From: Eledone cirrhosa
Taxonomy: Eukaryota
Reading direction: 5' to 3'
Length of the DNA stretch: 64,000 nucleotides
NCBI GenBank assembly: GCA_964016885.1
Contig: OZ024740.1
Span: 66,650,001-66,714,000, forward strand
This document shows, piece after piece, positions 8,652 to 51,802 of the stretch. A program made the translations under genes and the position numbers. The stretch's first letter is position 1. Each line of letters starts with the position of its first letter. Below the pieces are notes generated by a model. That model was not told the DNA's origin and did not search any database. It was given only the letters and a program-made list of their open reading frames with translations.

Positions 8652-9260
8652 GTCAGGTCACCAGTTGGTGCTACTGGTAACATGTATCCCAGTACCACCA
8701 GTCTCATCGTCGGGTCGTTGGCGACTAAACTGGCAACCCCACCAAGGTTTCTTGGTGAGGAGGGTGACTTTGGACATCCTGCAGGACTAAAAACAAAACC
8801 TGTCAAAGGGCAAGGGAGCTCTAAAGAGTCAATGGCCATTCAAAATCACCGGGAGAGATGACCCCTTAGCCTTTGTCATGGCAGAATTGTAGGAGAAGGA
8901 AAACTCTGATATAACACCTGCAACCCTGATGGTATCCAATGATGTTGACTTGTTCTTCTTTTTGGTAAATATCATCTTGGTTAAGAGAGTGGGACTGGCT
9001 TTGTGCAGTGCCTTTGCTCACTATAAAAGCTTCACGGCACAGGCATTGCTTTATATCTGGAGATCTCTCTGCACTTGTCGTCACATGGTACCATGAGCCC
9101 AGCACTATGTGTCAATAATTGTCACAAGTGTAGTGTATGTACCAGAGTTTTCAAGTCGCTGGCTGGACTAAAAAGTCACACTCATTCAGCGCACCGGTAG
9201 GGGCTCTCCTACATGGATATAAAGTAGTGGCCGTACTCGAATACGAGTTGGCAGCCACCA
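8652..9260 (+). repeat. Unclassified ~600-bp interspersed repeat (partial copy 8200-8300; inverted copy 51208-51802)
   Basis: Three clearly alignable copies ending in ...gtggccgtactcgaa(a/t)acgagttggcagccacca, each next to TA microsatellites. No recognisable protein motif. Confidence 0.8.
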
Positions 9261-9710: not shown

Positions 9711-10025
9711 CTCAGCCGTTAATATGCATAAGGAAAGTATATACTTTCAGACGTTCAATCATCTGGCAGGAAGGTTTACGATGCTGACGATAGCTAATAA
9801 GCTTGAAACTAGTACATCGTCCCTTTGTCAGTGTTGAACAAAAGGGCAACGATGGTTGCTAAACACTGTACGTCTTAATTCTGGCTGTTTGTTTACAAAC
9901 AAACCGAGCATTATAATAAATGTACGGTAAACCCATACGTACATGTATATATGTGTGGTTGTATATATACATACTACTCTACGTCTGTATACATATATGT
10001 ATGTACCTTTACATACTTATATTTA
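9711..10025 (+). mobile_element. Partial monomer of the hammerhead-containing retrozyme-like repeat (same family as 35183-36741)
   Basis: Aligns along its length with the unit at ~36366-36684. It ends about 90 bp upstream of the SLC6 splice acceptor. Confidence 0.85.
9778..9820 (+). ncRNA. Minimal type I hammerhead ribozyme (predicted)
   Basis: ACGAUG-CUGACGA-uAGCUaauaAGCUu-GAAA-CUAG-UA^-CAUCGU. It has a 6-bp stem I, the conserved core, a palindromic ACUAGU stem III and a GUA cleavage triplet. Confidence 0.85.
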
Positions 10026-10116: not shown

Positions 10117-10291
10117 GCTGATATTGTTCGCAAAGATGAAGAACAGACGCCTCCAGCTGGGGAAGAGGAAGAAGAAAATAATCGAGTAACATGGAGTGGT
10201 AAAACGGAATTTTTTATGACATGTATTGGGTATGCGGTTGGACTTGCCAATGTCTGGCGATTCCCATATTTGTGCTACAAAAATGGTGGTG
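10117..10291 (+). CDS. Exon of an SLC6 / neurotransmitter:sodium symporter (TM1 region); glycine/proline transporter-like
   Basis: Acceptor ttttcatacag and donor G|gtgagt. Encodes [10 protein letters not shown]...[36 protein letters not shown], which contains the NSS signature [13 protein letters not shown]. 175 nt, ends in phase 1. Confidence 0.95.
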
Positions 10292-12323
10292 GTGAGTTTC
10301 CTTCTCATATTTCTGTTAGATATACAGATTATTTTGAATAATATTTTCAATAAGCTTTTGACGCACCAATTTGAAAGGTACATTTCTTTAGTAACTCTCA
10401 CGTTTAATTACAGAACACATATGAAATGAATATTCCCTCTAGAGAGGAATATGCGTCGCTATTTTGGTGTGGTCTAGAGCTTTTGCCCTATAAAGTGAAG
10501 TGTAATTGTGTTTCTATTCCCTGTCCAATTCTTTGATTTTGCTGAAGTGAGACACATGAATGAAAGCTATTTATATGCATCTGGGGTCTCTATAATGCGT
10601 TATAACTTCTTTGTCCTATAGAAATACTTCAAATCAATCCAAATAGATGTTTGAGGAAATGTTTTTGTTGAAAGCTCCTAGGCTAAACAATCAGTACTTT
10701 TCTGAAAAGCTTCTTTTGTTTGTAGCCCCTATGGGAGTTCGCTTTGTATTCAATTCTGCAATGCACACACCCAATAAATCACACGCAGATTCACGTTTTC
10801 TTCATTCCGATTTCTACACCGCTTACACATGCATATCAAAGGCCCAAACTACTCACTTCGTTCAAAGCAACAACTTGGAACTCCACCTAATCCTGCTTCT
10901 CTATCATACAGTCTACTCATTAACCCCGTATCTTATATTTCTTAAGCTATTGCTGATATCCACGCATCACTATTTTCGAACGTCAAACTGAAAGGCGTGC
11001 CTTTCCCCTTTACTCGCCCGTTTAACATTTAATATCAGGAAAATAACGTATTATTTGTTGAAAGCCTTCATTTTTCTTTTATAATTTATCTGCTGTTTCC
11101 GCTGTTGATGATCAATATTCAACACGTTGGCTTCCAAGCTATCTTTTGCGTTTTGTCGCAGGACCGAAATATGATTCCATAATGAATTGTCATATGAGTA
11201 CTATAATGTATATTGTAACCAAGGGAATACATAGAAAGTGTTCATCACGCACAACATACCATGTGCTATTAGTAGCTAGTATCACACGCGACCCACCTGT
11301 GCTCGTCCTTAAAATCTTAGAGATATAATGGGACGATTTACTGGATTGCCGCGTGGCTCCCACAAATATACACTTTCTGGGACTTGTGTGAGCTAGTGTG
11401 TTAGATAAATTGCACACAAATAGCTGTTTTGTTTTTGCTTCAATATTATAGGTTTAACATATTATTTCAGTTTAACAAGGCACCAATTAGAATGTTTCCC
11501 AAATATCAATAAACAATTATATACTCTAATTTCTTTATATTATGTGAGCTGCAATAGCTTTTAATTCTGGATTCTTGTATTTTTGTATATGTTGTTTAAC
11601 TCTGCATGTGTGCGTACGTCTGTAATGATGCTGCTGCTACACACAAACAAATATACTAAACAGTATCTAGAGAACGCTTACTCGATTGATTAGCCAACAT
11701 TTCCAGCATCTGGCTCAGAAATATTCTTCCTTCCCTCTACATTTTATAACTCTATTACGATGAACTTTTCTATTTTGAACATGGCTGGTACTCTGACGCT
11801 TTCCATGTGGAATTCTCATCTCTTTCGTTTTGGCTCTTTTGTTTTCATGTATGGTTTGACCAACATGTCTCCCAGACAATGCATGCTCTGAGAAATATGC
11901 CCACTGGTTCCTTCCGACAATGTTGATCGTCTGGAAATCCTTCGTATTCCTTGTTAGTCATGTTGCCATCGACTGCAACGATTTATGTGGAACATTAAAC
12001 TCACCCATTTTACAGATGCCGGAGATCTTGGCAATTTCTTGAATGCCGTCATTTAAGCTTGATCTAACTAATGACATTCATATGTGTTCAAAGTCTGAAA
12101 GAAGAATTATTGAAAATCATCACATTGTATTTTGTATCTCTTTATGCTTTTATGCGTGTGTCATGTTTTTTCCCCGAAAGATGAATTTTCTATTTCGTCT
12201 TCTCATCGAAATATATTTGCTTTCTATTTCCTGACATTTCTCTCCTCTAAAATTAACTTTATTATTCATTTCATCGATGCTATTTCAAGTGTATTGATTA
12301 ATCCCTATGTTTGTATTTACTAG

Positions 12324-17637: not shown

Positions 17638-17942
17638 CCGAATATTTCATATTACCCAATACACAATCCCAAGTATGTTGTACACAGGTGAATATAAATT
17701 TATATATATATATGTATATATATATATTTCGTTTCTGAATTTGTTTAGCAAGATTCTTTATCTGAAATCGTGTGTTGAAACCGATATTGTTATACTTTGG
17801 GAGGGTCATGTTGCCAATAAGAAACACACGCACCAGTTGCTTTCACTTCAATTTAATTTAATATATATTTATAAATTTACAAATTCATAAATTTCTGGTT
17901 GGTTGGTTGCTTCCACAACCAGATAGTTGTTTATATATATAT

Positions 17943-17987
17943 AGTCATAGTTCTTTCGTCACACACTCTGTGACCTCTTCAGTGACT
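17943..17987 (-). ncRNA. Minimal type I hammerhead in the PLE 3' UTR / pseudo-LTR
   Basis: AGUCA-CUGAAGA-gGUCACAgagugUGUGAC-GAAA-GaaC-UA^-UGACU. Minimal HHRs in PLE pseudo-LTRs are an established feature. Confidence 0.8.
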
Positions 17988-18284
17988 GGGGATTTCTTTC
18001 TTCGTTTCTGTGCCTTTCCTTTCTTCTATCCTATGCCATTTTGTTTGTGTGTGGGTTGCGTGCTCAGTTTGCGCATGCGCCACATCCGGGTGTCTGTGTG
18101 TGTTTGTGTTCATTTTTCTATTTTTCTATTTATATTTGTTTGTTTATTTATTTATTTATTGTTGGTTGGTTGTTTGTTCTATGTGTGTGTGTGTTTTCAT
18201 TTTGTCTTGTGTGTGTTTTCATTTTGTGTGTGTTTTCAATTGTAAGTTGTTTGTTCTATGTGTGTGTGTGTTTTCATTTTGTCC

Positions 18285-21200
18285 TTAATTGTAAGTTGTG
18301 ATGTTGCTGTTCCACTCATATTTTCTATTTAATTTTGGTTTTAATTCTTTTATGCTTACTGCCTCTGTAATTTGCCTAAACATTGCGTCTTTCTTGTGTG
18401 TGGATTCTATTTTTATTTCTATGCTCTCTAATTTACCCCTGTGTTCTATCTTAGCATGTTGGTAGAGCACAGATGATTCTTTACTATCTTGGAGGTCTCG
18501 CCAGTGTTCATTTATTCGTTCCCCTATACTACGAGCTGTCTCACCTATGTACACTATATTTTTGTTTCTACATTGTCCTTCAGTACATCTTATGCTATAT
18601 ACTACATTTCTAGTTTTACAGTTAATATGGGGGCTTATTTTACAGGTTATACATTTCTTATCTATACATGAGGGTCTTTGGAACGGGTATGTCTTGCTAA
18701 TAAGTGTTTTTACGGAGGTACCAGGTCTTTCTACTATCTTAATATTGAGATTATGTTTCTTTAGGGCCCTTCTAAATTTGTAGGCTAGTTCGCCTCTAGG
18801 GGTTGTATTGATGAACATTACACTCTGGTATTTATTGCTATCATACCATGAGTTTATTCTATTGGCCTTGTTCTTAGTTCTTTCTATTCTATTCCAAAAT
18901 TTGCTCCTATAGAAGGGGCAGGTCCCATTTATGTCATTATTTACCATTTTTTACCATTTGGTTCTGGCTCCTTTATACACTCTGATTCTATCTCTCTGAT
19001 TGTAGCCAGAGAACTGCATACGGTGGATGAAGTGTTGTATGTGTCTCTCTAGTTCTTCGGGGTTGCACATGCGGGACACATTTCTCATCACCCGTACCAA
19101 ATCCGCAATCAGTATGTTGATTTTGGTATGGTCCGAAATGGCCGAGTTTCGGTGGATCAGATGTTTGGAAGTCATGGGTTTGGCATAATGGGAATGGAGG
19201 ATTTGTTTTTGGTTGTTAATAGTATCTAACCAGAGCTCTGTGTCTAGTACAGGTAATCGATGGTTGGGGTGTCTACTTGGGTAGTCTATAGTAACTCTAA
19301 TGCTCTGGTGGATGGAGTTTGCTATTTGCTGGATGCTTTCCATTGTGTTTTTCTCTGGTTCCTGACTGTTCTTTAGTGGGGGTGTCTTAACTACGATGTT
19401 TATATCATCTACGTAGCGGGAGTACATTATCAGGGTTAAGCTGTCTTCTAATTGTTCATTAAGTTTTTGTTTAAGTCTACTGTCCCACCATACCATGAAC
19501 AAGTTAGCTATGTCGCCTGCAATGCTAACACCAATGGCTGCTCCTTCCTCTTGGGCATATGTTTTACCATTAAATTTGAACATATGTTCCTTAAGGGTTA
19601 ATTTTATGCTGGCCCCTACCGCATGTGCAATCATTTTCTTCAGTTCATCGTGGTTTTCGGGTGTCCGTATGGCTCTGGTCCACCCGTTCCATCTATCTGT
19701 GTGGGTTTTCTTGGCCATTGAGGTAATGGTAGGTGGTCTGCCTCTTGCTGGTCTTGTAGGGCACAGGTTGCTAAGGTCATAAGTGTCTAGGTAACTATTA
19801 CTATGGGTAAGCTTAAGTAGAAGTCCCAGCTCACTGGAATCAATCCCACGGAACTCAACCTTGCTCTCGCTGATCATTTCGACGCATTTCTCCACAGCAA
19901 AATCCACGTCAATAGATGGATACAGGGACACAACATCCATACTGCCTATTATGCAGTTTGTTAGGTCCCCAGATCGGTTACCCGCGCCGATTCTGCTGAG
20001 GAGGTCCTCCGTGCTGTCACACACATCTGGGGACATCTCAATGATGGGGCGTATGATCAGGGAGAGGAAGTAGGGCAGTCTGTAGTTACTAGCAATGTTA
20101 GCCCCACAGACTGGCCGTGTTGGTGGTCCCGCGACAGGATCCCAGCCCGTTTTATGGTCTTTTCGAAGCCCATACAACGCCGGCACGTCATTGTTCCAGG
20201 CTTGGAAGTTGTTGGCAGTCCTTTTGTTGGGCTGCATTATATTTGTCCACATCACCATATGGGCATTGAGGGTTTTTTCTCTATCCTCATGCTCCTGTGG
20301 TGTTACCTCTCTTGTGTTAGTGATGTGGGGTTGCATTGCCTGGATGTAGTTTGGCAGGCTGTCAACCGACATTCTGCCAGACTTGTCTGTTGGAAAGCAT
20401 GCTATCTCTCCATTACGTGAGCGCTGCATGAGCTTACGCAAGCCATTTGCAGATTCTTCTCCCAGTTGCTGGGCCTCTATTCTATTATGCTTCTTGCTAT
20501 ACTGTTCTATAATATTTCTAAGTTCGGATTTAGCTATACTAAATTGTGCTTCTGTTTGTTCATCGACCTGCGACGGCAACTGCGTGCGTTTGTTAAATGG
20601 CAAAGTCGTGGCGTGGACTCGTCGTAGGTCGAATGATTTATCGGAGGGGTTATAAAACGGAGAGTTCCAGGCTGCTGCTTTATGTGTACTAGTGCTATTG
20701 TTAGTTGTGTTGTTTCTATTTCCACCAACAGCAGCAGCCTCAGCTTCATGGTTGTTTCTATGTCTCTCATAATTACTCCTGTCTCTTTCCACTGGCTCAA
20801 TGTTGTTATCTACCCTATTTTGTGTGTCTGTGTGTTCGTCTTGGTTATTCTCTTTGTCCTTAGTCTCCCTTCTCCTTTTAATCCTATTACTTTCTCTTAT
20901 TTCTCTGATTTCTGTGCTACTGTCATTACTTGTTTTCTGTGTCTGTGTGTTTGTTAAGATTGTAGTGGTGGTGAGAGGCATTGAATGTGTGTGTGTTGTT
21001 GTTGTTGATGTGTGTTGTTGTTGATGTGTGTTGTTGTCTCCGTGTGTGTGTGTGTTATCGTTGTTGTGTGTGTTGTTATTGTTGTTTGTGTTTGCGTGTC
21101 TGTTGTTGTTGTATCTGGGTATGTTGCTGTTGTTGTTGTTGTTGATGTGTGTGTTGTTGTTATTGTTGTCTCCGTGTGTGTTGTTATTGTTGTTTGTGTC

Positions 21201-21548
21201 TGCGTGTCTGTTGTATCTGGGTATGTTGCTATTGTTGGTGTTGTATCTGGGTATGTTGCTATTGTTGTTGTTATTGTTGTTTGTGTCTGTGTGTCTGTTG
21301 TTGTTGGGATGTGTGTTGTATATGTGTGTGCGTATATTGTTGCGTTTGTTTTTGTTTTTGATGCTCCAGCGTAGTTTCGTAAATGATTTTTCTATTTCTG
21401 ACAGACAACTAATCATATTTACCTTCTTGAATGTCGCAAATTTGGGTGGCAGACGTAACACAGACATTTCATTATTATCTATTTCCGTGTTTCCATAAAT
21501 GTTGGTATTTTCATTGTTGAACTCTTCAGATAATGAGGTGTCGGCCAT
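18285..21548 (-). pseudogene. PLE RT + GIY-YIG ORF interrupted by one nonsense change
   Basis: The 865-aa and 220-aa ORFs are in the same frame. TGG TAA AAA (stop at 18951-18953) corresponds to TGG GAA AAA in the + copy. Confidence 0.93.
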
Positions 21549-22101
21549 GTTGATACCGTCAATTTTGTCGGGATATCTATTGGTATACTCTATAGTATCC
21601 CGATTTAGCTTTGCCTGTTTAAGCCACTTTAATTTTTTGTTAAAGTGCTTATTACATTCTTGAGTAATGTACTGTTCTTCGGGGCGTATAAGGCTTATAA
21701 ATGTTAGTTTTTCTGCTGGTGTGGTGATTTTAGATATTTCATCTATTAGGTTACGCTTTAGTTTTTCTTGATGACTTAATTCTCTATAGATCTTCTTTTT
21801 TTTTATGTTTAGAATTAAAGAACAATTCTAAACAATTCTAAACATAAAAAAAAAGAAGATCTATAGAGAATTAAGTCATCAAGAAAAACTAAAGCGTAAC
21901 CTAATAGATGAAATATCTAAAATCACCACACCAGCAGAAAAACTAACATTTATAAGCCTTATACGCCCCGAAGAACAGTACATTACTCAAGAATGTAATA
22001 AGCACTTTAACAGAAAATTAAAGTGGCTTAAACAGGCAAAGCTAAATCGGGATACTATAGAGTATACCAATAGATATCCCGACAAAATTGACGGTATCAA
22101 C

Positions 22102-25100
22102 ATGGCCGACACCTCATTATCTGAAGAGTTCAACAATGAAAATACCAACATTTATGGAAACACGGAAATAGATAATAATGAAATGTCTGTGTTACGTCTG
22201 CCACCCAAATTTGCGACATTCAAGAAGGTAAATATGATTAGTTGTCTGTCAGAAATAGAAAAATCATTTACGAAACTACGCTGGAGCATCAAAAACAAAA
22301 ACAAAAGCAACAATATACGCACACACATATACAACACACATCCCAACAACAACAGACACACAGACACAAACAACAATAACAACAACAATAGCAACATACC
22401 CAGATACAACACCAACAATAGCAACATACCCAGATACAACAGACACGCAGACACAAACAACAATAACAACACACACGGAGACAACAATAACAACAACACA
22501 CACATCAACAACAACAACAACAGCAACATACCCAGATACAACAACAACAGACACGCAAACACAAACAACAATAACAACACACACAACAACGATAACACAC
22601 ACACACACGGAGACAACAACACACATCAACAACAACACACATCAACAACAACAACACACACACATTCAATGCCTCTCACCACCACTACAATCTTAACAAA
22701 CACACAGACACAGAAAACAAGTAATGACAGTAGCACAGAAATCAGAGAAATAAGAGAAAGTAATAGGATTAAAAGGAGAAGGGAGACTAAGGACAAAGAG
22801 AATAACCAAGACGAACACACAGACACACAAAATAGGGTAGATAACAACATTGAGCCAGTGGAAAGAGACAGGAGTAATTATGAGAGACATAGAAACAACC
22901 ATGAAGCTGAGGCTGCTGCTGTTGGTGGAAATAGAAACAACACAACTAACAATAGCACTAGTACACATAAAGCAGCAGCCTGGAACTCTCCGTTTTATAA
23001 CCCCTCCGATAAATCATTCGACCTACGACGAGTCCACGCCACGACTTTGCCATTTAACAAACGCACGCAGTTGCCGTCGCAGGTCGATGAACAAACAGAA
23101 GCACAATTTAGTATAGCTAAATCCGAACTTAGAAATATTATAGAACAGTATAGCAAGAAGCATAATAGAATAGAGGCCCAGCAACTGGGAGAAGAATCTG
23201 CAAATGGCTTGCGTAAGCTCATGCAGCGCTCACGTAATGGAGAGATAGCATGCTTTCCAACAGACAAGTCTGGCAGAATGTCGGTTGACAGCCTGCCAAA
23301 CTACATCCAGGCAATGCAACCCCACATCACTAACACAAGAGAGGTAACACCACAGGAGCATGAGGATAGAGAAAAAACCCTCAATGCCCATATGGTGATG
23401 TGGACAAATATAATGCAGCCCAACAAAAGGACTGCCAACAACTTCCAAGCCTGGAACAATGACGTGCCGGCGTTGTATGGGCTTCGAAAAGACCATAAAA
23501 CGGGCTGGGATCCTGTCGCGGGACCACCAACACGGCCAGTCTGTGGGGCTAACATTGCTAGTAACTACAGACTGCCCTACTTCCTCTCCCTGATCATACG
23601 CCCCATCATTGAGATGTCCCCAGATGTGTGTGACAGCACGGAGGACCTCCTCAGCAGAATCGGCGCGGGTAACCGATCTGGGGACCTAACAAACTGCATA
23701 ATAGGCAGTATGGATGTTGTGTCCCTGTATCCATCTATTGACGTGGATTTTGCTGTGGAGAAATGCGTCGAAATGATCAGCGAGAGCAAGGTTGAGTTCC
23801 GTGGGATTGATTCCAGTGAGCTGGGACTTCTACTTAAGCTTACCCATAGTAATAGTTACCTAGACACTTATGACCTTAGCAACCTGTGCCCTACAAGACC
23901 AGCAAGAGGCAGACCACCTACCATTACCTCAATGGCCAAGAAAACCCACACAGATAGATGGAACGGGTGGACCAGAGCCATACGGACACCCGAAAACCAC
24001 GATGAACTGAAGAAAATGATTGCACATGCGGTAGGGGCCAGCATAAAATTAACCCTTAAGGAACATATGTTCAAATTTAATGGTAAAACATATGCCCAAG
24101 AGGAAGGAGCAGCCATTGGTGTTAGCATTGCAGGCGACATAGCTAACTTGTTCATGGTATGGTGGGACAGTAGACTTAAACAAAAACTTAATGAACAATT
24201 AGAAGACAGCTTAACCCTGATAATGTACTCCCGCTACGTAGATGATATAAACATCGTAGTTAAGACACCCCCACTAAAGAACAGTCAGGAACCAGAGAAA
24301 AACACAATGGAAAGCATCCAGCAAATAGCAAACTCCATCCACCAGAGCATTAGAGTTACTATAGACTACCCAAGTAGACACCCCAACCATCGATTACCTG
24401 TACTAGACACAGAGCTCTGGTTAGATACTATTAACAACCAAAAACAAATCCTCCATTCCCATTATGCCAAACCCATGACTTCCAAACATCTGATCCACCG
24501 AAACTCGGCCATTTCGGACCATACCAAAATCAACATACTGATTGCGGATTTGGTACGGGTGATGAGAAATGTGTCCCGCATGTGCAACCCCGAAGAACTA
24601 GAGAGACACATACAACACTTCATCCACCGTATGCAGTTCTCTGGCTACAATCAGAGAGATAGAATCAGAGTGTATAAAGGAGCCAGAACCAAATGGGAAA
24701 AAATGGTAAATAATGACATAAATGGGACCTGCCCCTTCTATAGGAGCAAATTTTGGAATAGAATAGAAAGAACTAAGAACAAGGCCAATAGAATAAACTC
24801 ATGGTATGATAGCAATAAATACCAGAGTGTAATGTTCATCAATACAACCCCTAGAGGCGAACTAGCCTACAAATTTAGAAGGGCCCTAAAGAAACATAAT
24901 CTCAATATTAAGATAGTAGAAAGACCTGGTACCTCCGTAAAAACACTTATTAGCAAGACATACCCGTTCCAAAGACCCTCATGTATAGATAAGAAATGTA
25001 TAACCTGTAAAATAAGCCCCCATATTAACTGTAAAACTAGAAATGTAGTATATAGCATAAGATGTACTGAAGGACAATGTAGAAACAAAAATATAGTGTA

Positions 25101-25365
25101 CATAGGTGAGACAGCTCGTAGTATAGGGGAACGAATAAATGAACACTGGCGAGACCTCCAAGATAGTAAAGAATCATCTGTGCTCTACCAACATGCTAAG
25201 ATAGAACACAGGGGTAAATTAGAGAGCATAGAAATAAAAATAGAATCCACACACAAGAAAGACGCAATGTTTAGGCAAATTACAGAGGCAGTAAGCATAA
25301 AAGAATTAAAACCAAAATTAAATAGAAAATATGAGTGGAACAGCAACATCACAACTTACAATTAA
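22102..25365 (+). CDS. Penelope-like reverse transcriptase / GIY-YIG endonuclease (1087 aa from the first ATG; frame open a further 89 codons upstream to the inversion junction)
   Basis: PTDKSG, LYGLRKDHK..PTRPV, SMDVVSLYPSI, QEEGAAIG, YSRYVDD, a CxxxxCxxC linker, VVYSIRC...YIGETARSIGERINEH and LNRKYEWN. Clade not resolved (Neptune/Nematis-like linker). Confidence 0.95.
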   Translation: MADTSLSEEFNNENTNIYGNTEIDNNEMSVLRLPPKFATFKKVNMISCLSEIEKSFTKLRWSIKNKNKSNNIRTHIYNTHPNNNRHTDTNNNNNNNSNIPRYNTNNSNIPRYNRHADTNNNNNTHGDNNNNNTHINNNNNSNIPRYNNNRHANTNNNNNTHNNDNTHTHGDNNTHQQQHTSTTTTHTHSMPLTTTTILTNTQTQKTSNDSSTEIREIRESNRIKRRRETKDKENNQDEHTDTQNRVDNNIEPVERDRSNYERHRNNHEAEAAAVGGNRNNTTNNSTSTHKAAAWNSPFYNPSDKSFDLRRVHATTLPFNKRTQLPSQVDEQTEAQFSIAKSELRNIIEQYSKKHNRIEAQQLGEESANGLRKLMQRSRNGEIACFPTDKSGRMSVDSLPNYIQAMQPHITNTREVTPQEHEDREKTLNAHMVMWTNIMQPNKRTANNFQAWNNDVPALYGLRKDHKTGWDPVAGPPTRPVCGANIASNYRLPYFLSLIIRPIIEMSPDVCDSTEDLLSRIGAGNRSGDLTNCIIGSMDVVSLYPSIDVDFAVEKCVEMISESKVEFRGIDSSELGLLLKLTHSNSYLDTYDLSNLCPTRPARGRPPTITSMAKKTHTDRWNGWTRAIRTPENHDELKKMIAHAVGASIKLTLKEHMFKFNGKTYAQEEGAAIGVSIAGDIANLFMVWWDSRLKQKLNEQLEDSLTLIMYSRYVDDINIVVKTPPLKNSQEPEKNTMESIQQIANSIHQSIRVTIDYPSRHPNHRLPVLDTELWLDTINNQKQILHSHYAKPMTSKHLIHRNSAISDHTKINILIADLVRVMRNVSRMCNPEELERHIQHFIHRMQFSGYNQRDRIRVYKGARTKWEKMVNNDINGTCPFYRSKFWNRIERTKNKANRINSWYDSNKYQSVMFINTTPRGELAYKFRRALKKHNLNIKIVERPGTSVKTLISKTYPFQRPSCIDKKCITCKISPHINCKTRNVVYSIRCTEGQCRNKNIVYIGETARSIGERINEHWRDLQDSKESSVLYQHAKIEHRGKLESIEIKIESTHKKDAMFRQITEAVSIKELKPKLNRKYEWNSNITTYN

Positions 25366-25663
25366 GGACAAAATGAAAACACACACACACATAGAACAAA
25401 CAACTTACAATTGAAAACACACACAAAATGAAAACACACACAAGACAAAATGAAAACACACACACACATAGAACAAACAACCAACCAACAATAAATAAAT
25501 AAATAAACAAACAAATACAAATAGAAAAATAGAAAAATGAACACAAACACACACAGACACCCGGATGTGGCGCATGCGCAAACTGAGCACGCAACCCACA
25601 CACAAACAAAATGGCATAGGATAGAAGAAAGGAAAGGCACAGAAACGAAGAAAGAAATCCCCC

Positions 25664-25708
25664 AGTCACTGAAGAGGTCACACAGTGTGTGACGAAAGAA
25701 ATATGACT
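25664..25708 (+). ncRNA. Hammerhead in the PLE 3' UTR (stem III variant)
   Basis: AGUCA-CUGAAGA-gGUCACAcagugUGUGAC-GAAA-GaaA-UA-UGACU. A C-to-A difference from the left arm removes the G-C pair of stem III. Confidence 0.7.
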
Positions 25709-25863
25709 ATATATATATAAACAACTATCTGGTTGTGGAACCAACCAACCAACCAGAAATTTATGAATTTGTAAATTTATAAATATATATTAAATTAAAT
25801 TGAAGTGAAAGCAACTGGTGCGTGTGTTTCTTATTGGCAACATGACCCTCCCAAAGTATAACA

Positions 25864-25964
<101 letters not shown>

Positions 25965-35129: not shown

Positions 35130-35186
<57 letters not shown>

Positions 35187-35228
35187 TATGTATATGTACA
35201 TGCACATATGTATACAGACGTTCAGTAG

Positions 35229-35260
<32 letters not shown>

Positions 35261-35401
35261 CATGCACACATATATATATATGTACGTATGGATTCACCAA
35301 ACATTTATTATAATGCTCGGTGTGTTTGTAAACAAACATCCCGTATTAAGCCGTAGTGTCAAGCAGCCACCGTTTCTCGTTTATTCAACACTGACAAAGG
35401 A

Positions 35402-35444
35402 ACGCTGTACTAGTTTCAAGCTTATTAGCTATCGTCAGCAACGT
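35402..35444 (-). ncRNA. Type I hammerhead, array copy 1
   Basis: ACGUUG-CUGACGA-uAGCUaauaAGCUu-GAAA-CUAG-UA^-CAGCGU. Confidence 0.85.
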
Positions 35445-35670
35445 ATACCTTCCTGCCAGATAGTTGAACGTCCGAAAGTATATACTTTCGTTATGCATAT
35501 TAACGGCTGAGTAGCTGAATTTGCATATCGAGTGCGTTAATCGGCCGGGTGCACCGAAAACGATAAACGGAAAAAATGAAACGAAATTTCATTTCCCACT
35601 CTTAGTAAGGCTGTTACTTAAATATAAGTATGTATACGTACATACATATATGTATACAGACGTACAGTAG

Positions 35671-35707
<37 letters not shown>

Positions 35708-35834
35708 GCACACATATATATATGTACGTATGGATTCACCAAACATTTCTTATAATGCTTGTAAACAAACATCCCGTATTAATCCGTAGTGCCTAGCAAC
35801 CACCGTTGCTCGTTTATTCAACACTGACAAAGGA

Positions 35835-35877
35835 ACGCTGTACTAGTTTCAAGCTTGTTAGCTATCGTCAGCAGCGT
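35835..35877 (-). ncRNA. Type I hammerhead, array copy 2
   Basis: ACGCUG-CUGACGA-uAGCUaacaAGCUu-GAAA-CUAG-UA^-CAGCGU, with a fully Watson-Crick stem I. Confidence 0.85.
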
Positions 35878-36004
35878 ATACCTTCCTGCCAGATAGTTGA
35901 ACGGCCGATTAACTCACTCGATATGCAAATTGGGCTACTCAGCCGTTAATATGTATAAGGAAAGTATACACTTTCGGACGTTCAACTATCTGGCAGGAAG
36001 GTAA

Positions 36005-36047
36005 ACGTTGCTGACGATAGCTAACAAGCTTGAAACTAGTACAGCGT
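36005..36047 (+). ncRNA. Type I hammerhead, array copy 3
   Basis: ACGUUG-CUGACGA-uAGCUaacaAGCUu-GAAA-CUAG-UA^-CAGCGU. Predicted cleavage after 36041. Confidence 0.85.
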
Positions 36048-36432
36048 TCCTTTGTCAGTGTTGAACAAACGAGCATCGGTGTTTGCTAGACACTACGGCT
36101 TAATACGGGATGATTGTTTACAAACACACCGAGCATTATAATAAACATTTGGTGAATCCATATGTACATATATATATGTGTGCATGTATGTATATAAATA
36201 TACATACTACTGTACGCCTGTATACATATATGTATGTACGTATACTTACTTATATTTAAGTAACAGCCGTACTAAGAGTGGGAAATGAAATTTCGTTTCA
36301 TTTTTTCCGTTTATCGTTTTCGGTGCACCCGGCCGATTAACCCACTCGATATGCAAATTGGGCTACTCAGCCGTTAATATGCATAAGGAAAGTATATACT
36401 TTCGGACGTTCAACTCTCTGGCAGAAAGGTAT

Positions 36433-36475
36433 ACGTTGCTGACGATAGCTAACAAGCTTGAAACTAGTACAGCGT
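36433..36475 (+). ncRNA. Type I hammerhead, array copy 4
   Basis: Same motif as copy 3. Predicted cleavage after 36469. Confidence 0.85.
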
Positions 36476-36777
36476 TCCTTTGTCAGTGTTCGACAAACGA
36501 GCAACGGTGGTTTCTAGACACTACGGCTTAATACGGGATGTTTGTTTACAAACACACCGAGCATTATAATAAATGTTTCGTGAATCCATACGTACATATA
36601 TATATGTGTGCATGAATGTATATATACATACATACTACTGTACGTCTGTAAACATATATGTATGTACGTATACATACTTATATTTAAGTAACATCCGTAC
36701 TAAGAGTGGAAAATGAAATTTCGTTTCATTTTTTCCGTTTATATATATATAATTATATATATATATATGTATGAATA

Positions 36778-36835
<58 letters not shown>

Positions 36836-41071: not shown

Positions 41072-41126
41072 ACTGCTATATATATTTCGGTGACAGCTAT
41101 CTTTGGCTGTGACCTCTTCAGGCAGT
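41072..41126 (-). ncRNA. Type I hammerhead in a short element between TA tracts (~41020-41237)
   Basis: ACUGC-CUGAAGA-GGUcACAGCcaaagauaGCUGUcACC-GAAA-UAUAUA-UA^-GCAGU, with all three stems present. Confidence 0.85.
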
Positions 41127-41283: not shown

Positions 41284-41924
41284 ACATCAAAAGATGGTTA
41301 AAAATATATGAGTTTGGAAAAAAGGAAAGGAAGGGGGAAAGAAAAGGTAAGGAACAGGAAGAAAAAATTATATATAGAAGAAAAAAATATAATAATAAGG
41401 AAATGATGACGGAGGAGGAGTACGTGAAGGAAGGATGGCAGAGGAAGAGAAAATGAGTGAGAGAGAGAGATAACCTTTAATACTGAGTAACACTCTGTCA
41501 CAGAGAAATAAAAAAAAAACCGTTGTAAGATAATACATAATTGAGAAAATTATGAAATTAAAAGTTAATGAGGATTATGAATGGTGATGCTTATGATTAA
41601 AGAAAAAAGAATTGAGAATACTATTTATTTAATGTTTATATATTGAAGGGTTTAATAAAATGTATTATTAAAATAAATTATACTAAGAGAATAAGGTGAA
41701 TGAAGATAAGGTTAAATGAATTATGAACTTAGAGGAATTAATTAGGGTCCGATTTTGTTTCGATATATTGTAATAGGAAAAAGTAAATAATAGAGTTAAT
41801 ACGAGAATGGAAAAAGAGAAGAAAAAAATATTCAAGGAAATTCTATCTATAATTTTTTCTTCCTGATCCTTACCTTTTCTTTCCCCCTTCCTTTCCTTTT
41901 TTCAAATCTCATATATCCCTCTAA

Positions 41925-41991
41925 TTTTATCTGATGAGAACGCAAATATCATCCCATGATGATATCTGTTTTTGAAATGCGCATAATAAAA
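41925..41991 (+). ncRNA. Type I hammerhead (family C)
   Basis: UUUUAU-CUGAUGA-[long stem II with auaucauc/gaugauau]-GAAA-UGCGCA-UA^-AUAAAA, with palindromic stem III AUGCGCAU. Confidence 0.85.
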
Positions 41992-42114
41992 TACATAGAA
42001 CTCTTTTAACCATCTTTTGATTTAATATTATTTGTACTCCAGTCCTATAAACTTTTGAGTGCTACTTATACGATATTTGCATTGTTCTATTGTGCTACAA
42101 CAAAACTCACCCCT

Positions 42115-42183
<69 letters not shown>

Positions 42184-42367
42184 GGAGGTGAGTTTTATTG
42201 TAGTACAATAAAGCAATGCAGATATCGGATAAGAAGCACTCTACAGTTTGTAGGACTGGAGTATGCATAATATAAGATCAAAAGATGGATAGTGGATAGT
42301 GCAGTTATGTTGATTTAAAACTGCACTATCCACAAGTGTTTTTTAGCCTTCATATCATGTTCTCCTG

Positions 42368-42434
42368 TTTTATCTGATGAAAACACAAATATTAGTGCAT
42401 GATGATGTTTGTTTTTGAAATGCGCATAATAAAA
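42368..42434 (+). ncRNA. Type I hammerhead (family C, second copy)
   Basis: UUUUAU-CUGAUGA-aaacacaaauau...auguuuguuuuu-GAAA-UGCGCA-UA^-AUAAAA. Core, stem I and stem III are identical to the first copy while stem II has diverged. Confidence 0.82.
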
Positions 42435-42466
42435 TACGTGGAACTCCTTTAACCATCTTTTGATCT

Positions 42467-42586
<120 letters not shown>

Positions 42587-45502: not shown

Positions 45503-47900
45503 CATCATCATCATCATCATCATCAACGGTTAACGTCCGTGTTCCACGCTTGCATGGGTTTGGACAGGGGTAGTCCCACTTGAGGCAAGAGTGATTGTCT
45601 TGCTCGCATAGGACTGTCTGGCAGGTTTTCTACAGTTGGATGCCCTTCCTAACACCAACCACATTTACAGTGTGGGTCTGAGAGGTTTTTACCGTGTTGC
45701 CTACACGGCCACATTACAGCGTGGACTGTGTGTTTTTTTTGTCGTGACACCTACACGATCTCATTTGTTTCGGCCTGGATGGCGCGGCACCAACATAACT
45801 TTACATAGAACGGGGTGGTGTGGATGGGGTGGAGGCGGTGGTGGTGGGATGGGGTGTATTTTGTTAGAGATGCCTACTGGCTGGAGTAGGTTTTACTATA
45901 TATTTAGGTAAGGCGGGTCTTCTGTGTTACTGAGTACCGCCAAAGGTCTCGGTCCAGTGACATTGTCTTGGAGAAGTGTAAATGTGTGATGTCGGAGTTT
46001 ATCAGCTCGTCCCAGGTTTTTCTAGGTCTGCCTATTCCGTGACTACCGTCTATCTTTATTGCCCTGCACTTTGTTATACAGCTATCGACTTTCATGCGCA
46101 TCACGTGTCCATACCAACGTAGCCTTCTCTCGAGTAAACAACATCTGATCCCTCTTATCTCTAATTTTTTCCTTAGTTCGTTTATGCTTTGCCGTTCACG
46201 TATATTACTGTTACACATCCAGCGGAGCATGCAAGCTTCGTTCCTCTCTAGTCTGCGTATATCCTCTGCACACAATGCCCAGGTCTCACTGCCATGCAAC
46301 ATTGCTGTTCGTATGCAGGCATCGTACAACCTGCCTTTCATTTTTAGGGAGAACCCTTTAGCAGCTAATAGTGGTATAAGCTCTCTGAACTTTTTCCAAA
46401 CAGTTCTGACTCTAGCTACTGTACTTTCAGAGCACCCTCCCCCACTGCTGATTTTATCACCCAGGTAACGGAAACTGTCCACTATTTCTATAGAACCCTC
46501 TGCGCAATTGAAAGAGCTAGTATTTTTGTGTGCACTTGCTGCTACATATTGCACCAGAACACCGGCCACATGTAAAATCTATGTTCTTAGTTAGCTTACC
46601 TGTGATCCCACTACATATTTTATGCACCCATACTTTGCATTTAGGACATAAAATGGAGTTTCTACCTACGCCTTTCCTACACACCGAGCACGACCATTTC
46701 CCAGAAGGGACCACCGCCTTGTTTTCTTTCCTACAAACTAGAACTTTGAATTTTAAGTCCTTTTGACTCTAGGCCGTGCTTCCATGTTTGGAATTTCTTC
46801 TCTAGCTCGGCCATTGATTCCGCTATGAGTGTCAGGTCGTCTGCGTATAGGAGTTCCCATGGGCAGCCTGTCTTGAACTCCTCTGTTATAGCCTGAAGGG
46901 CAATAATAAATAGTAGGAGGCTGAGAACAGAGCCCTGATGGACGCCAACTTTTACGCTAAACTCTTCACTATATTCGTTGTTAATTCTAACCTTGCTGAC
47001 TGTTTCTTTATACATGGCTTGTATAGCCCTCACAAGCCATTCGTCAACGCCTAGTTTTCTAAGAGCCCACCAGATAATGGAGCGGGGGACTCTGTCGAAG
47101 GCTTTCTCCAAGTCGACAAAAGCTAAGTAGAGGGGTTTACCTTTAGCTAGGTACTTCTCCTGTAGTTGTCGTACTATGAAAAGAGCGTCTGTGGTACTTT
47201 TGCCTGACACAAACCCGAACTGCATTTCATCTAGGTCAATTCTCTCTCTGATTAGTTGCGCTATTACTTTTTCCGTGACCTTCATGACCTGGTCGATTAA
47301 TTTAATGCCTCTATAGTTACTCCTATCTAGGGCGTCTCCTTTACCCTTATAACAGTTAACGATGATGCTGCTATGCCAGTCCTTCGGAACAACCCCATTC
47401 TGTACGACTTGGTTAACTATGCGGGTGACCATGGTGTGTCCCACCGTGCCAGATGCCTTCAGCATCTCAGCAACTATTTCCGAAGGCCCAGCCGCCTTAC
47501 CCGTCTTCATATCCTTGATTGCCTTACTTATTATACTCCCCTCGACTAACACTGCTGGTCCCTCTATTGGGTCGATATGGGGGAGACTGTCTTTCTCCCA
47601 TTTATTCTCCTCATTTAGTAGCCTTTCATAGTGACACTTCCAAGCTACCTTCTTATCAGCGTCGGTGATGGCAAGTGTGCCATCGTCGTTTAGTACACAC
47701 TTCTCCCCGACAATATCACGGTTTTCCTTGACGCATTGCCTAGCAATCCTGAACACCTCACGTTTTTGGTCATCGCGTTGTAGAACATGCTTGAACTTTC
47801 TTTCCTCAGCTTCCCTTCTTGCTAAGTACACTTGTCTCCTAGCTTCCCTCCTGGCCACTTGATAGTCTTCTCTACTTCCCCCATCCCGCCATACTTTCCA
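45503..47900 (-). mobile_element. 5'-truncated RTE LINE (RT, Cys/His finger insert, C-terminus), frameshifted
   Basis: NYRGIKL, QFGF..GKSTTDA, FVDLEKAFDRVPR, GVHQGSVLS, LLYADDL, CSVC...CPKC..WVH..C, FRYLGD and RRLRWYGHV, with a (GAT)n tail. Confidence 0.93.
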
Positions 47901-47902
47901 AG

Positions 47903-47964
<62 letters not shown>

Positions 47965-51210: not shown

Positions 51211-51802
51211 TGGCTGCCAACTCGTTTTCGAGTACGGCCACTACTTTATATACATGTAGGAAAACCCCCTACCGAATCGCTGAACGAGTGTGACTTTTTA
51301 GTCCAGCTTGCGACTTGAAAACTCTGGTACAAACACTACACTTGTGACAATTATTGACACATAGTGCTGGGCCCATGGTACCGTGTGACGACAAGTGCAG
51401 ACAGATCTTCAGATATAAAGCAATGCCTGTGGCATGAAGCTTTTATAGTGAGCAAAGGCACTGCACAAAGCCAGTCCCACTCTCTTAAACAAGATGATAT
51501 TTACCAAAAAGAAGAACAAGTCAACATCATTGGATACTATCAGGGTTGCAGGTGTTATATCAGAGTTTTCCTTCTCCTAGAATTCTGCCTTGACAAAGGC
51601 TACAGGGTCATCTCTCCCGGTGATTTTGGATGGCAATTGACTCTTAAGAGCTCCTTTGCCTTTTGACAGGTTTTGTTTTTAGTCCTGCAGGATGTCCAAA
51701 GTCACCCTGCTCACCAAGAAACATTGGTGGGGTTCCAGATTAGTCGCCAACGACCCGACCATAAGACAGGTTGTACTGGAATACATGTTACCAGTAGCAC
51801 CA
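51208..51802 (-). repeat. Inverted copy of the 8652-9260 repeat
   Basis: Colinear reverse complement. The ORF track shows near-identical spurious peptides for both copies. Confidence 0.85.

Follow-up and report, generated by a model that had tools for sequence, protein, structure and literature searches.

Likely two-ended, Penelope-like insertion of a non-coding hammerhead retrozyme family into (TA)n runs

A non-coding element of approximately 1.5 kb, located at positions 35183–36742 of the 64,000-nucleotide stretch of DNA analyzed here (the window), represents a new family of the metazoan non-LTR retrozyme kind, and is likely the product of a two-ended insertion into (TA)n of the type made by Penelope-like elements (PLEs). 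Copies of this family end at either of two fixed internal sites, here called S and T, and head-to-head copies combine one of each. PLE-type mobilization of the family is well supported, as a PLE family present in the same window obeys the same S+T rule with a 60-nt tail. The retrozyme class is already known, as are the tail and the inverted copy, and a dependence of retrozymes on PLEs has already been proposed (PMC7229834; bioRxiv 10.64898/2026.07.22.740005). The basis of that proposal was co-occurrence together with homology at the termini; the present analysis adds a counted match of the insertion footprint itself, namely two fixed starts, one per arm, at the same spacing in the retrozyme and the PLE of one genome.

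The two arms of the element lie head to head between (TA)n runs at 35133–35182 and 36743–36831, within which no target-site duplication is readable. The left arm (35183–35908, minus strand, ~1.67 units) is tail-less and has its 3′ end at S (unit position ~214); the right arm (35902–36742, plus strand, ~1.96 units) has its 3′ end at T (unit position 273). They meet at a palindromic hexamer, CGGCCG (35902–35907), which matches the other arm's sequence at five of six positions (microhomology). Tandem Repeats Finder reports 35902–36742 as 2.0 copies of period 428 with 94% matches, and self-BLAST recovers the inverted repeat 35177–36686 at 87.5% identity; together with a hammerhead descriptor, these confirm the initial annotation of a tandem, non-coding 428-nt unit with one hammerhead per unit, on both strands around an inversion at 35902. 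The right arm had been noted to run ~60 nt further than the left, and the extension measures 59 nt (36684–36742), forming a tail between S and T with a predicted hairpin that ends at T. In unit bases the arms measure 713 (left) and 841 (right), with the left nested within the right.

Each arm contains two hammerheads in a row, and the descriptor (type I: CUGACGA / helix II / GAAA-CUA-GUA^, with a helix I of 6–7 bp) identifies all four: 35402–35444 and 35835–35877 on the minus strand, with predicted cuts after 35408 and 35841, and 36004–36048 and 36433–36475 on the plus strand, with predicted cuts after 36041 and 36469. In every case a 4-bp helix II is closed by U.U, helix III is a palindromic ACUAGU with one pair, and the triplet is GUA. 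The predicted cut-to-cut length is 428 nt on the plus strand (36042–36469), as had been claimed, and 433 nt on the minus strand; the plus-strand monomer has 37.6% GC, a longest ORF of 49 aa, and a folding z-score of −6.0 relative to shuffles. Rfam gives no hammerhead family at the locus (all 61 rows of one scan and 150 of 207 rows of the other), and the basis for calling the ribozyme is therefore the descriptor together with covariation.

The third pair of helix I is kept paired in 165 of 171 pieces (U.G in 119, A-U in 26, G.U in 16, and C-G in 2). Four subfamilies can be distinguished, differing at 14–42 of 307 positions, and their only differences within the ribozyme are in loop II and at that helix I pair; none of 26 core positions varies between subfamilies, as compared with 43 of 262 other positions (p = 0.012), a comparison biased by the choice of most loci through an exact core. 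In public contigs, which were unselected for the core, the variants listed within 36433–36475 (40 of 44 rows) are confined to N7, loop II, and the helix I pair with its compensating changes. This confinement indicates that the ribozyme is under structural constraint and that its fold mattered during the spread of the family. Self-cleavage may be weak, because helix III consists of one pair only and the hammerhead core is mispaired in the fold predicted for the monomer; when two ribozymes were co-folded, the lowest-energy fold was not the active dimer. Minimal ribozymes built in this way have been described as depending on dimers, with weak activity in vitro (PMC4209133, PMC7229834), and only one of nine Xenopus retrozyme dimers cleaved in vitro (bioRxiv 10.64898/2026.07.22.740005).

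A genomic copy survey reveals a large dispersed family, with 12,756 exact matches to a 31-nt ribozyme core in the 3.0-Gb genome and 17,487 to a 21-nt tail motif; the reversed control of each returned none. The identification of the unit as a dispersed hammerhead repeat of the animal retrozyme kind is thus borne out: tandem repetition within 150–450 bp, GC content below 50%, absence of coding capacity, at least two type I hammerheads in a row, and dispersed high copy number are all found. Metazoan non-LTR retrozymes likewise have a tandem, non-coding unit of a few hundred bases with low GC, one type I hammerhead per unit, and thousands of copies (PMC7229834; bioRxiv 10.64898/2026.07.22.740005). 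The U.U at the base of helix II recurs in the axolotl HHR_Amex2, and the strongly self-paired monomer is shared with retrozymes. At 428 nt the unit, known here from DNA alone, is slightly longer than the 170–400 nt of expressed retrozymes, though inside the 150–450 bp range. The dispersed partial copy previously noted at 9711 was also recovered (self-BLAST 9711–9937, 87% over 227 nt); it is an independent, 5′-truncated copy of a different subfamily (9711–10022, plus strand) that ends at S in a TA run and contains one descriptor-identified hammerhead (9778–9820). Single low-depth contigs from two other organisms also match the unit, ribozyme included, over the compared region 36260–36575; these are too few to call the family shared.

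Insertion ends were surveyed on the window's own contig (0–30.6 Mb), at the loci that gave the first 100 listed matches to each pattern, taken by position. The core-selected part of this census comprised 67 loci, 80 insertions, and 121 mapped arms; the merged census comprised 89 intervals and 156 arms, or 152 after four local duplicates were dropped. The 80 core-selected insertions include 40 head-to-head inversions, 39 single arms, and one tail-to-tail arrangement that consists of two neighboring insertions. Among the 121 arms, 3′ ends fall at T in 52 (unit position ~273), at S in 51 (~214), and elsewhere in 18; none falls within 6 nt of the ribozyme cut, and only one 5′ end lies at the cut. 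S and T are fixed internal 3′ ends 59 nt apart; 5′ ends are variable, reflecting truncation. The same two ends recur at unrelated loci on many contigs, and (TA)n adjoins most of those inspected. One public run, which may be the source sample, contains 60 contigs that pass from the unit into (TA)n at 36314, which corresponds to T; the four public runs compared consist of contigs, from which the ends, strand, and level of RNA are not readable.

All 35 classifiable inverted pairs in the merged census join one S arm to one T arm, with no S+S or T+T (16 of 51 pairs had one unclassifiable arm), an outcome with a probability of ~0.5^35 if ends were chosen independently. The tail is accordingly borne by exactly one arm in 35 of 35 pairs, on a side that varies. 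The palindrome had initially been attributed to a cDNA folded back by PLE machinery, and the locus itself offers some grounds for a single cDNA having folded back at CGGCCG and been copied: the left arm is nested within the right, the junction is a palindromic hexamer, and self-priming has been proposed for PLE head-to-head junctions (PMC3846280). However, arms are non-nested in 12 of 25 pairs of the merged census and 10 of 28 core-selected pairs, so that in these neither arm can copy the other, which contradicts fold-back as a general route. Fold-back also does not explain why copying should halt 59 nt early every time, and an untailed arm cannot yield a tailed one. Arm lengths correlate at most weakly across pairs (rho = 0.36, p = 0.08 in the merged census; rho = 0.06 in the core-selected part). 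At the locus, where nesting leaves fold-back possible on geometry alone, two separate primings fit better, because mirror units share no rare alleles across the arms (0 of 9, 14, 10, and 14 sites) while both left units share a 1% allele missing from the right arm, plus a longer TA run. Overall, we consider fold-back improbable.

A satellite grown and inverted by local DNA duplication was also considered as the origin of the locus. Local duplication does occur in the family: one array shows an ABAB dimer duplication (L072, 2337–4273) and another locus repeated blocks comprising whole inverted insertions (L076), patterns that represent later local amplification or assembly duplication. At the locus in the window, however, the four units differ mutually by ~5–6%, like units of different loci (5.0%), and the same two end points appear at unrelated loci on many contigs. 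Both observations contradict local duplication, which is left with very little probability. A separate rearrangement or flank transduction is seen at L069 (4800–7900), where units in inverted orientation, 98% alike, share ~600 nt of identical upstream flank.

The PLE in the window is itself a head-to-head insertion (17724–25868), with an ORF (21832–25365) encoding a reverse transcriptase plus, at the C terminus, a GIY-YIG endonuclease, and with hammerhead-like motifs of its own at 25663 and 17988. Its assignment rests on motifs and on the pLTR/tail layout: Pfam did not recognize the whole protein, yielding only a weak RVT_1 match on a part of it, and a PDB search gave only a weak match to an intron endonuclease (E = 0.16). 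The best named homolog of the protein is from Octopus vulgaris (69%), on which basis the host is probably an octopod. The ORF includes an Asn-rich insert resembling those described in rotifer PLEs (PMC3846280). The arms (17988–25662) are identical over 3,829 nt and separated by a 17-nt loop, with slight differences in the outer 200 nt; this configuration has been counted here in favor of fold-back, though fold-back, conversion, or polishing could each account for it.

This PLE family has two end sites for its copies, spaced 60 nt from each other and located in the first codons of the ORF; its inverted pairs, read by eye, are S+T in 11 of 11 classifiable cases, with one more unclassifiable. The likeness drawn initially between the longer right arm of the retrozyme and the PLE palindrome therefore holds for size (59-nt and 60-nt tails) and fails for side, since in the PLE the left arm ends at T and the right at S, a mirrored arrangement. 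Similarly, the shared geometry supports PLE involvement as a genome-wide S+T rule and not through co-location: both families are abundant, occupy the same (TA)n target, lack homology, and differ in age, so sharing a window provides no evidence. The PLE family is young: the best 61 of 48,759 candidates share 99% protein identity; the retrozyme locus is ~3% diverged from its subfamily while PLE copies are ~99% identical, indicating that the retrozyme locus is older than the PLE copy in the window.

The proposal that PLEs mobilize the unit is therefore upheld as regards the footprint (fixed ends, one-sided tail, inverted copies, and TA target), while a partner PLE sequence was not found. No PLE with the unit as terminal repeat was present among the best-scoring candidates at 60 protein-search loci (mostly of one family) and 30 GIY-YIG loci. 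Protein searches with the window PLE and with a 36%-identical homolog returned mostly the same young family; the GIY-YIG search returned several further PLE families, none ending in the unit. Local alignments of the unit with the termini of the window PLE and of an older PLE family were at chance level in shuffle tests (best p ~0.02 among 36 comparisons). In that older family (L219, L220, L222, and relatives), a ribozyme-like motif lies ~450–750 nt after the GIY-YIG match and has the same build as that of the unit (U.U closing, 6-nt loop, ACCGGU, and GUA), but with UUGAUAA in place of CUGANGA. The older family is a candidate relative; its sequence similarity to the unit is not significant.

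These data bear on whether the unit might instead be the terminal repeat (pLTR) of an autonomous PLE, the copies being its truncated ends. The ribozyme type and tail footprint are the same as those of PLE ends (PMC4209133, PMC8557442), the older family carries its motif of the same build, and homology between PLEs and a retrozyme has been reported in Xenopus (bioRxiv 10.64898/2026.07.22.740005). However, 62 of 121 arms exceed one unit and continue into another unit; 38 5′ flanks of non-inverted arms show scattered pairwise matches only, with no common upstream body or ORF; and the PLE ORFs inspected near units (at L012, L069, and L080) have ends of their own. The S–T region of the PLE is moreover the start of its ORF, whereas the longest ORF of the unit has 49 aa, and the unit encodes none of the RT and GIY-YIG ORF of an autonomous PLE. 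An identity with a pLTR thus appears unlikely, though ancient descent of the unit from one is possible.

The favored reading, two-ended PLE-type insertion, would proceed as follows. A Penelope-like RT-endonuclease acting in trans would write retrozyme RNA into a (TA)n run by two-ended target-primed reverse transcription, with each DNA end priming its own cDNA, one at S and the other at T; the two 5′-truncated copies would then be joined head to head by microhomology. A PLE protein has been reported to nick and extend both strands in vitro and to start internally at two sites bounding the tail, with the start site the same for top and bottom strands (PMC11167929); as the start sites showed no strand difference, that system does not by itself predict strict S+T pairing. 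More tentatively, the PLE enzyme could act as a dimer that binds a single small circular ribozyme RNA asymmetrically, with its subunits at S and at T, ~60 nt apart, and rolls cDNA onto each end of a double-strand cut; the element would then mimic the PLE start region in spacing and fold only, lacking sequence kinship to its driver. We regard this as a minority possibility. If true, strict S+T pairing would be the trace left in the genome by the PLE second-strand step. The rule predicts that in vitro an S start should occur on one strand and a T start on the other.

The RNA that serves as template would be longer than one unit and could be a 428-nt circle closed by ligation or a tandem transcript left uncleaved; both may be used. 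A doubly cleaved linear monomer is not the main template, because 42 of 48 arms that were chosen irrespective of the ribozyme and come within 20 nt of the cut extend at least 30 nt past it, and stops there show no significant excess (3.7 5′ ends expected in the 25-nt bin covering the cut and 7 observed, p = 0.08); an excess of 5′ ends at the cut is rejected on this count. For the predicted circle the chances fall slightly short of even, and they are no different for a linear template, transcribed from a genomic array as several units and left uncleaved, on which the same enzyme would carry out the same two-ended priming with no need of a circle. In one insertion (L003), the two arms have four rare alleles in common, in register, that its own terminal tail lacks, with a similar pattern in L092, as expected of a linear template, though gene conversion between arms could mimic this. 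Unprocessed RNA is also the main PLE substrate in vitro, where ribozyme mutants insert normally (PMC11167929), and the one-in-nine cleavage of Xenopus retrozyme dimers points the same way. Conversely, one rare allele is found in all 10 unit pieces of L108 (7.5 + 2.35 units), including the tail; in L016 and L019 the tail has an allele in common with the inner unit; both left units at the locus share the 1% allele absent from the right arm; and the ribozyme is under structural constraint. The units of L108 are near-identical, and two further alleles there are patchy. Junction reads or divergent RT-PCR cannot decide for a circle, since tandem genomic DNA holds the same junction; haplotypes can test circle vs. 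linear template.

Similarities to endonuclease-positive PLE insertions extend to 5′ truncation, partial tandems, and an inverted, 5′-truncated copy (PMC3846280, PMC8557442, PMC11167929), as well as a tail at one end, the (TA)n target, and two internal starts bounding the tail; known PLE marks include a one-ended tail of 30–40 bp, truncated copies in inverted orientation, and (TA)n targets (PMC3846280, PMC8557442). Unlike these insertions, the unit lacks an ORF, its tail is 59–60 nt as opposed to the reported 30–40 bp and sits on exactly one arm throughout, and it shares no sequence homology with any PLE family examined. Chlamys PLEs such as MRC1 (PMC8557442) are likewise non-autonomous, multicopy, and inserted head to tail by PLE machinery. 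However, the MRC1 type resembles its autonomous partner at the 3′ end and belongs to a clade described as lacking canonical hammerheads, whereas the unit has a hammerhead and no detectable 3′ similarity to a PLE.

The main texts of PMC7229834 and bioRxiv 10.64898/2026.07.22.740005 make no mention of head-to-head insertions or fixed internal ends; the word "inverted" does not occur in the former and occurs in the preprint only in a reference title. The preprint proposes local growth of arrays, whereas those described here look to have been laid down at insertion. A literature search for cephalopod or octopus retrozymes gave only PMC8557442 (the family tables of the preprint could hold similar elements), and a search for "non-autonomous Penelope" with "hammerhead" gave none.

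Profile searches place SNF-family exons on the plus strand at contig positions 66660183, 66862541, 66903342, and 66917247 (the window itself spans 66650001–66714000); as these are in profile order, the element is probably intronic in an SLC6 gene. A plus-strand read-through transcript would meet the antisense arm first, and in predicted read-through folds 42–43 of the 43 bases of each ribozyme pair with the other arm on either strand. The initial suggestion that transcription from either direction would release monomers is therefore not supported, as the ribozymes of a read-through transcript are predicted to lie buried in a long hairpin. Under this folding model, monomer release would need initiation near the junction, and the copy at this locus is more likely to form a long double-stranded pre-mRNA hairpin than to be a source of circles. 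The first SNF-matching exon of the SLC6 gene lies within the window (10183–10299, plus strand), with the next detected exon 200 kb away, and the retrozyme copy at 9711 is located ~100 nt upstream of it in sense orientation.

The window contains several further repeats. Another hammerhead family occupies 41900–42470, with motifs at 41924 and 42366 (442 apart) and an inverted segment (42007–42291) around a CA/TA run, and type I hammerhead motifs of further families occur on the minus strand at 41126–41072 and 48071–48005. An RVT_1 reverse transcriptase at 46734–47903 (minus strand, E = 1.6e-27), broken downstream, is read as LINE-like rather than as a PLE. Finally, a 469-nt inverted pair (8735–9203 and 51266–51734) is 94% complementary across a distance of 42 kb.
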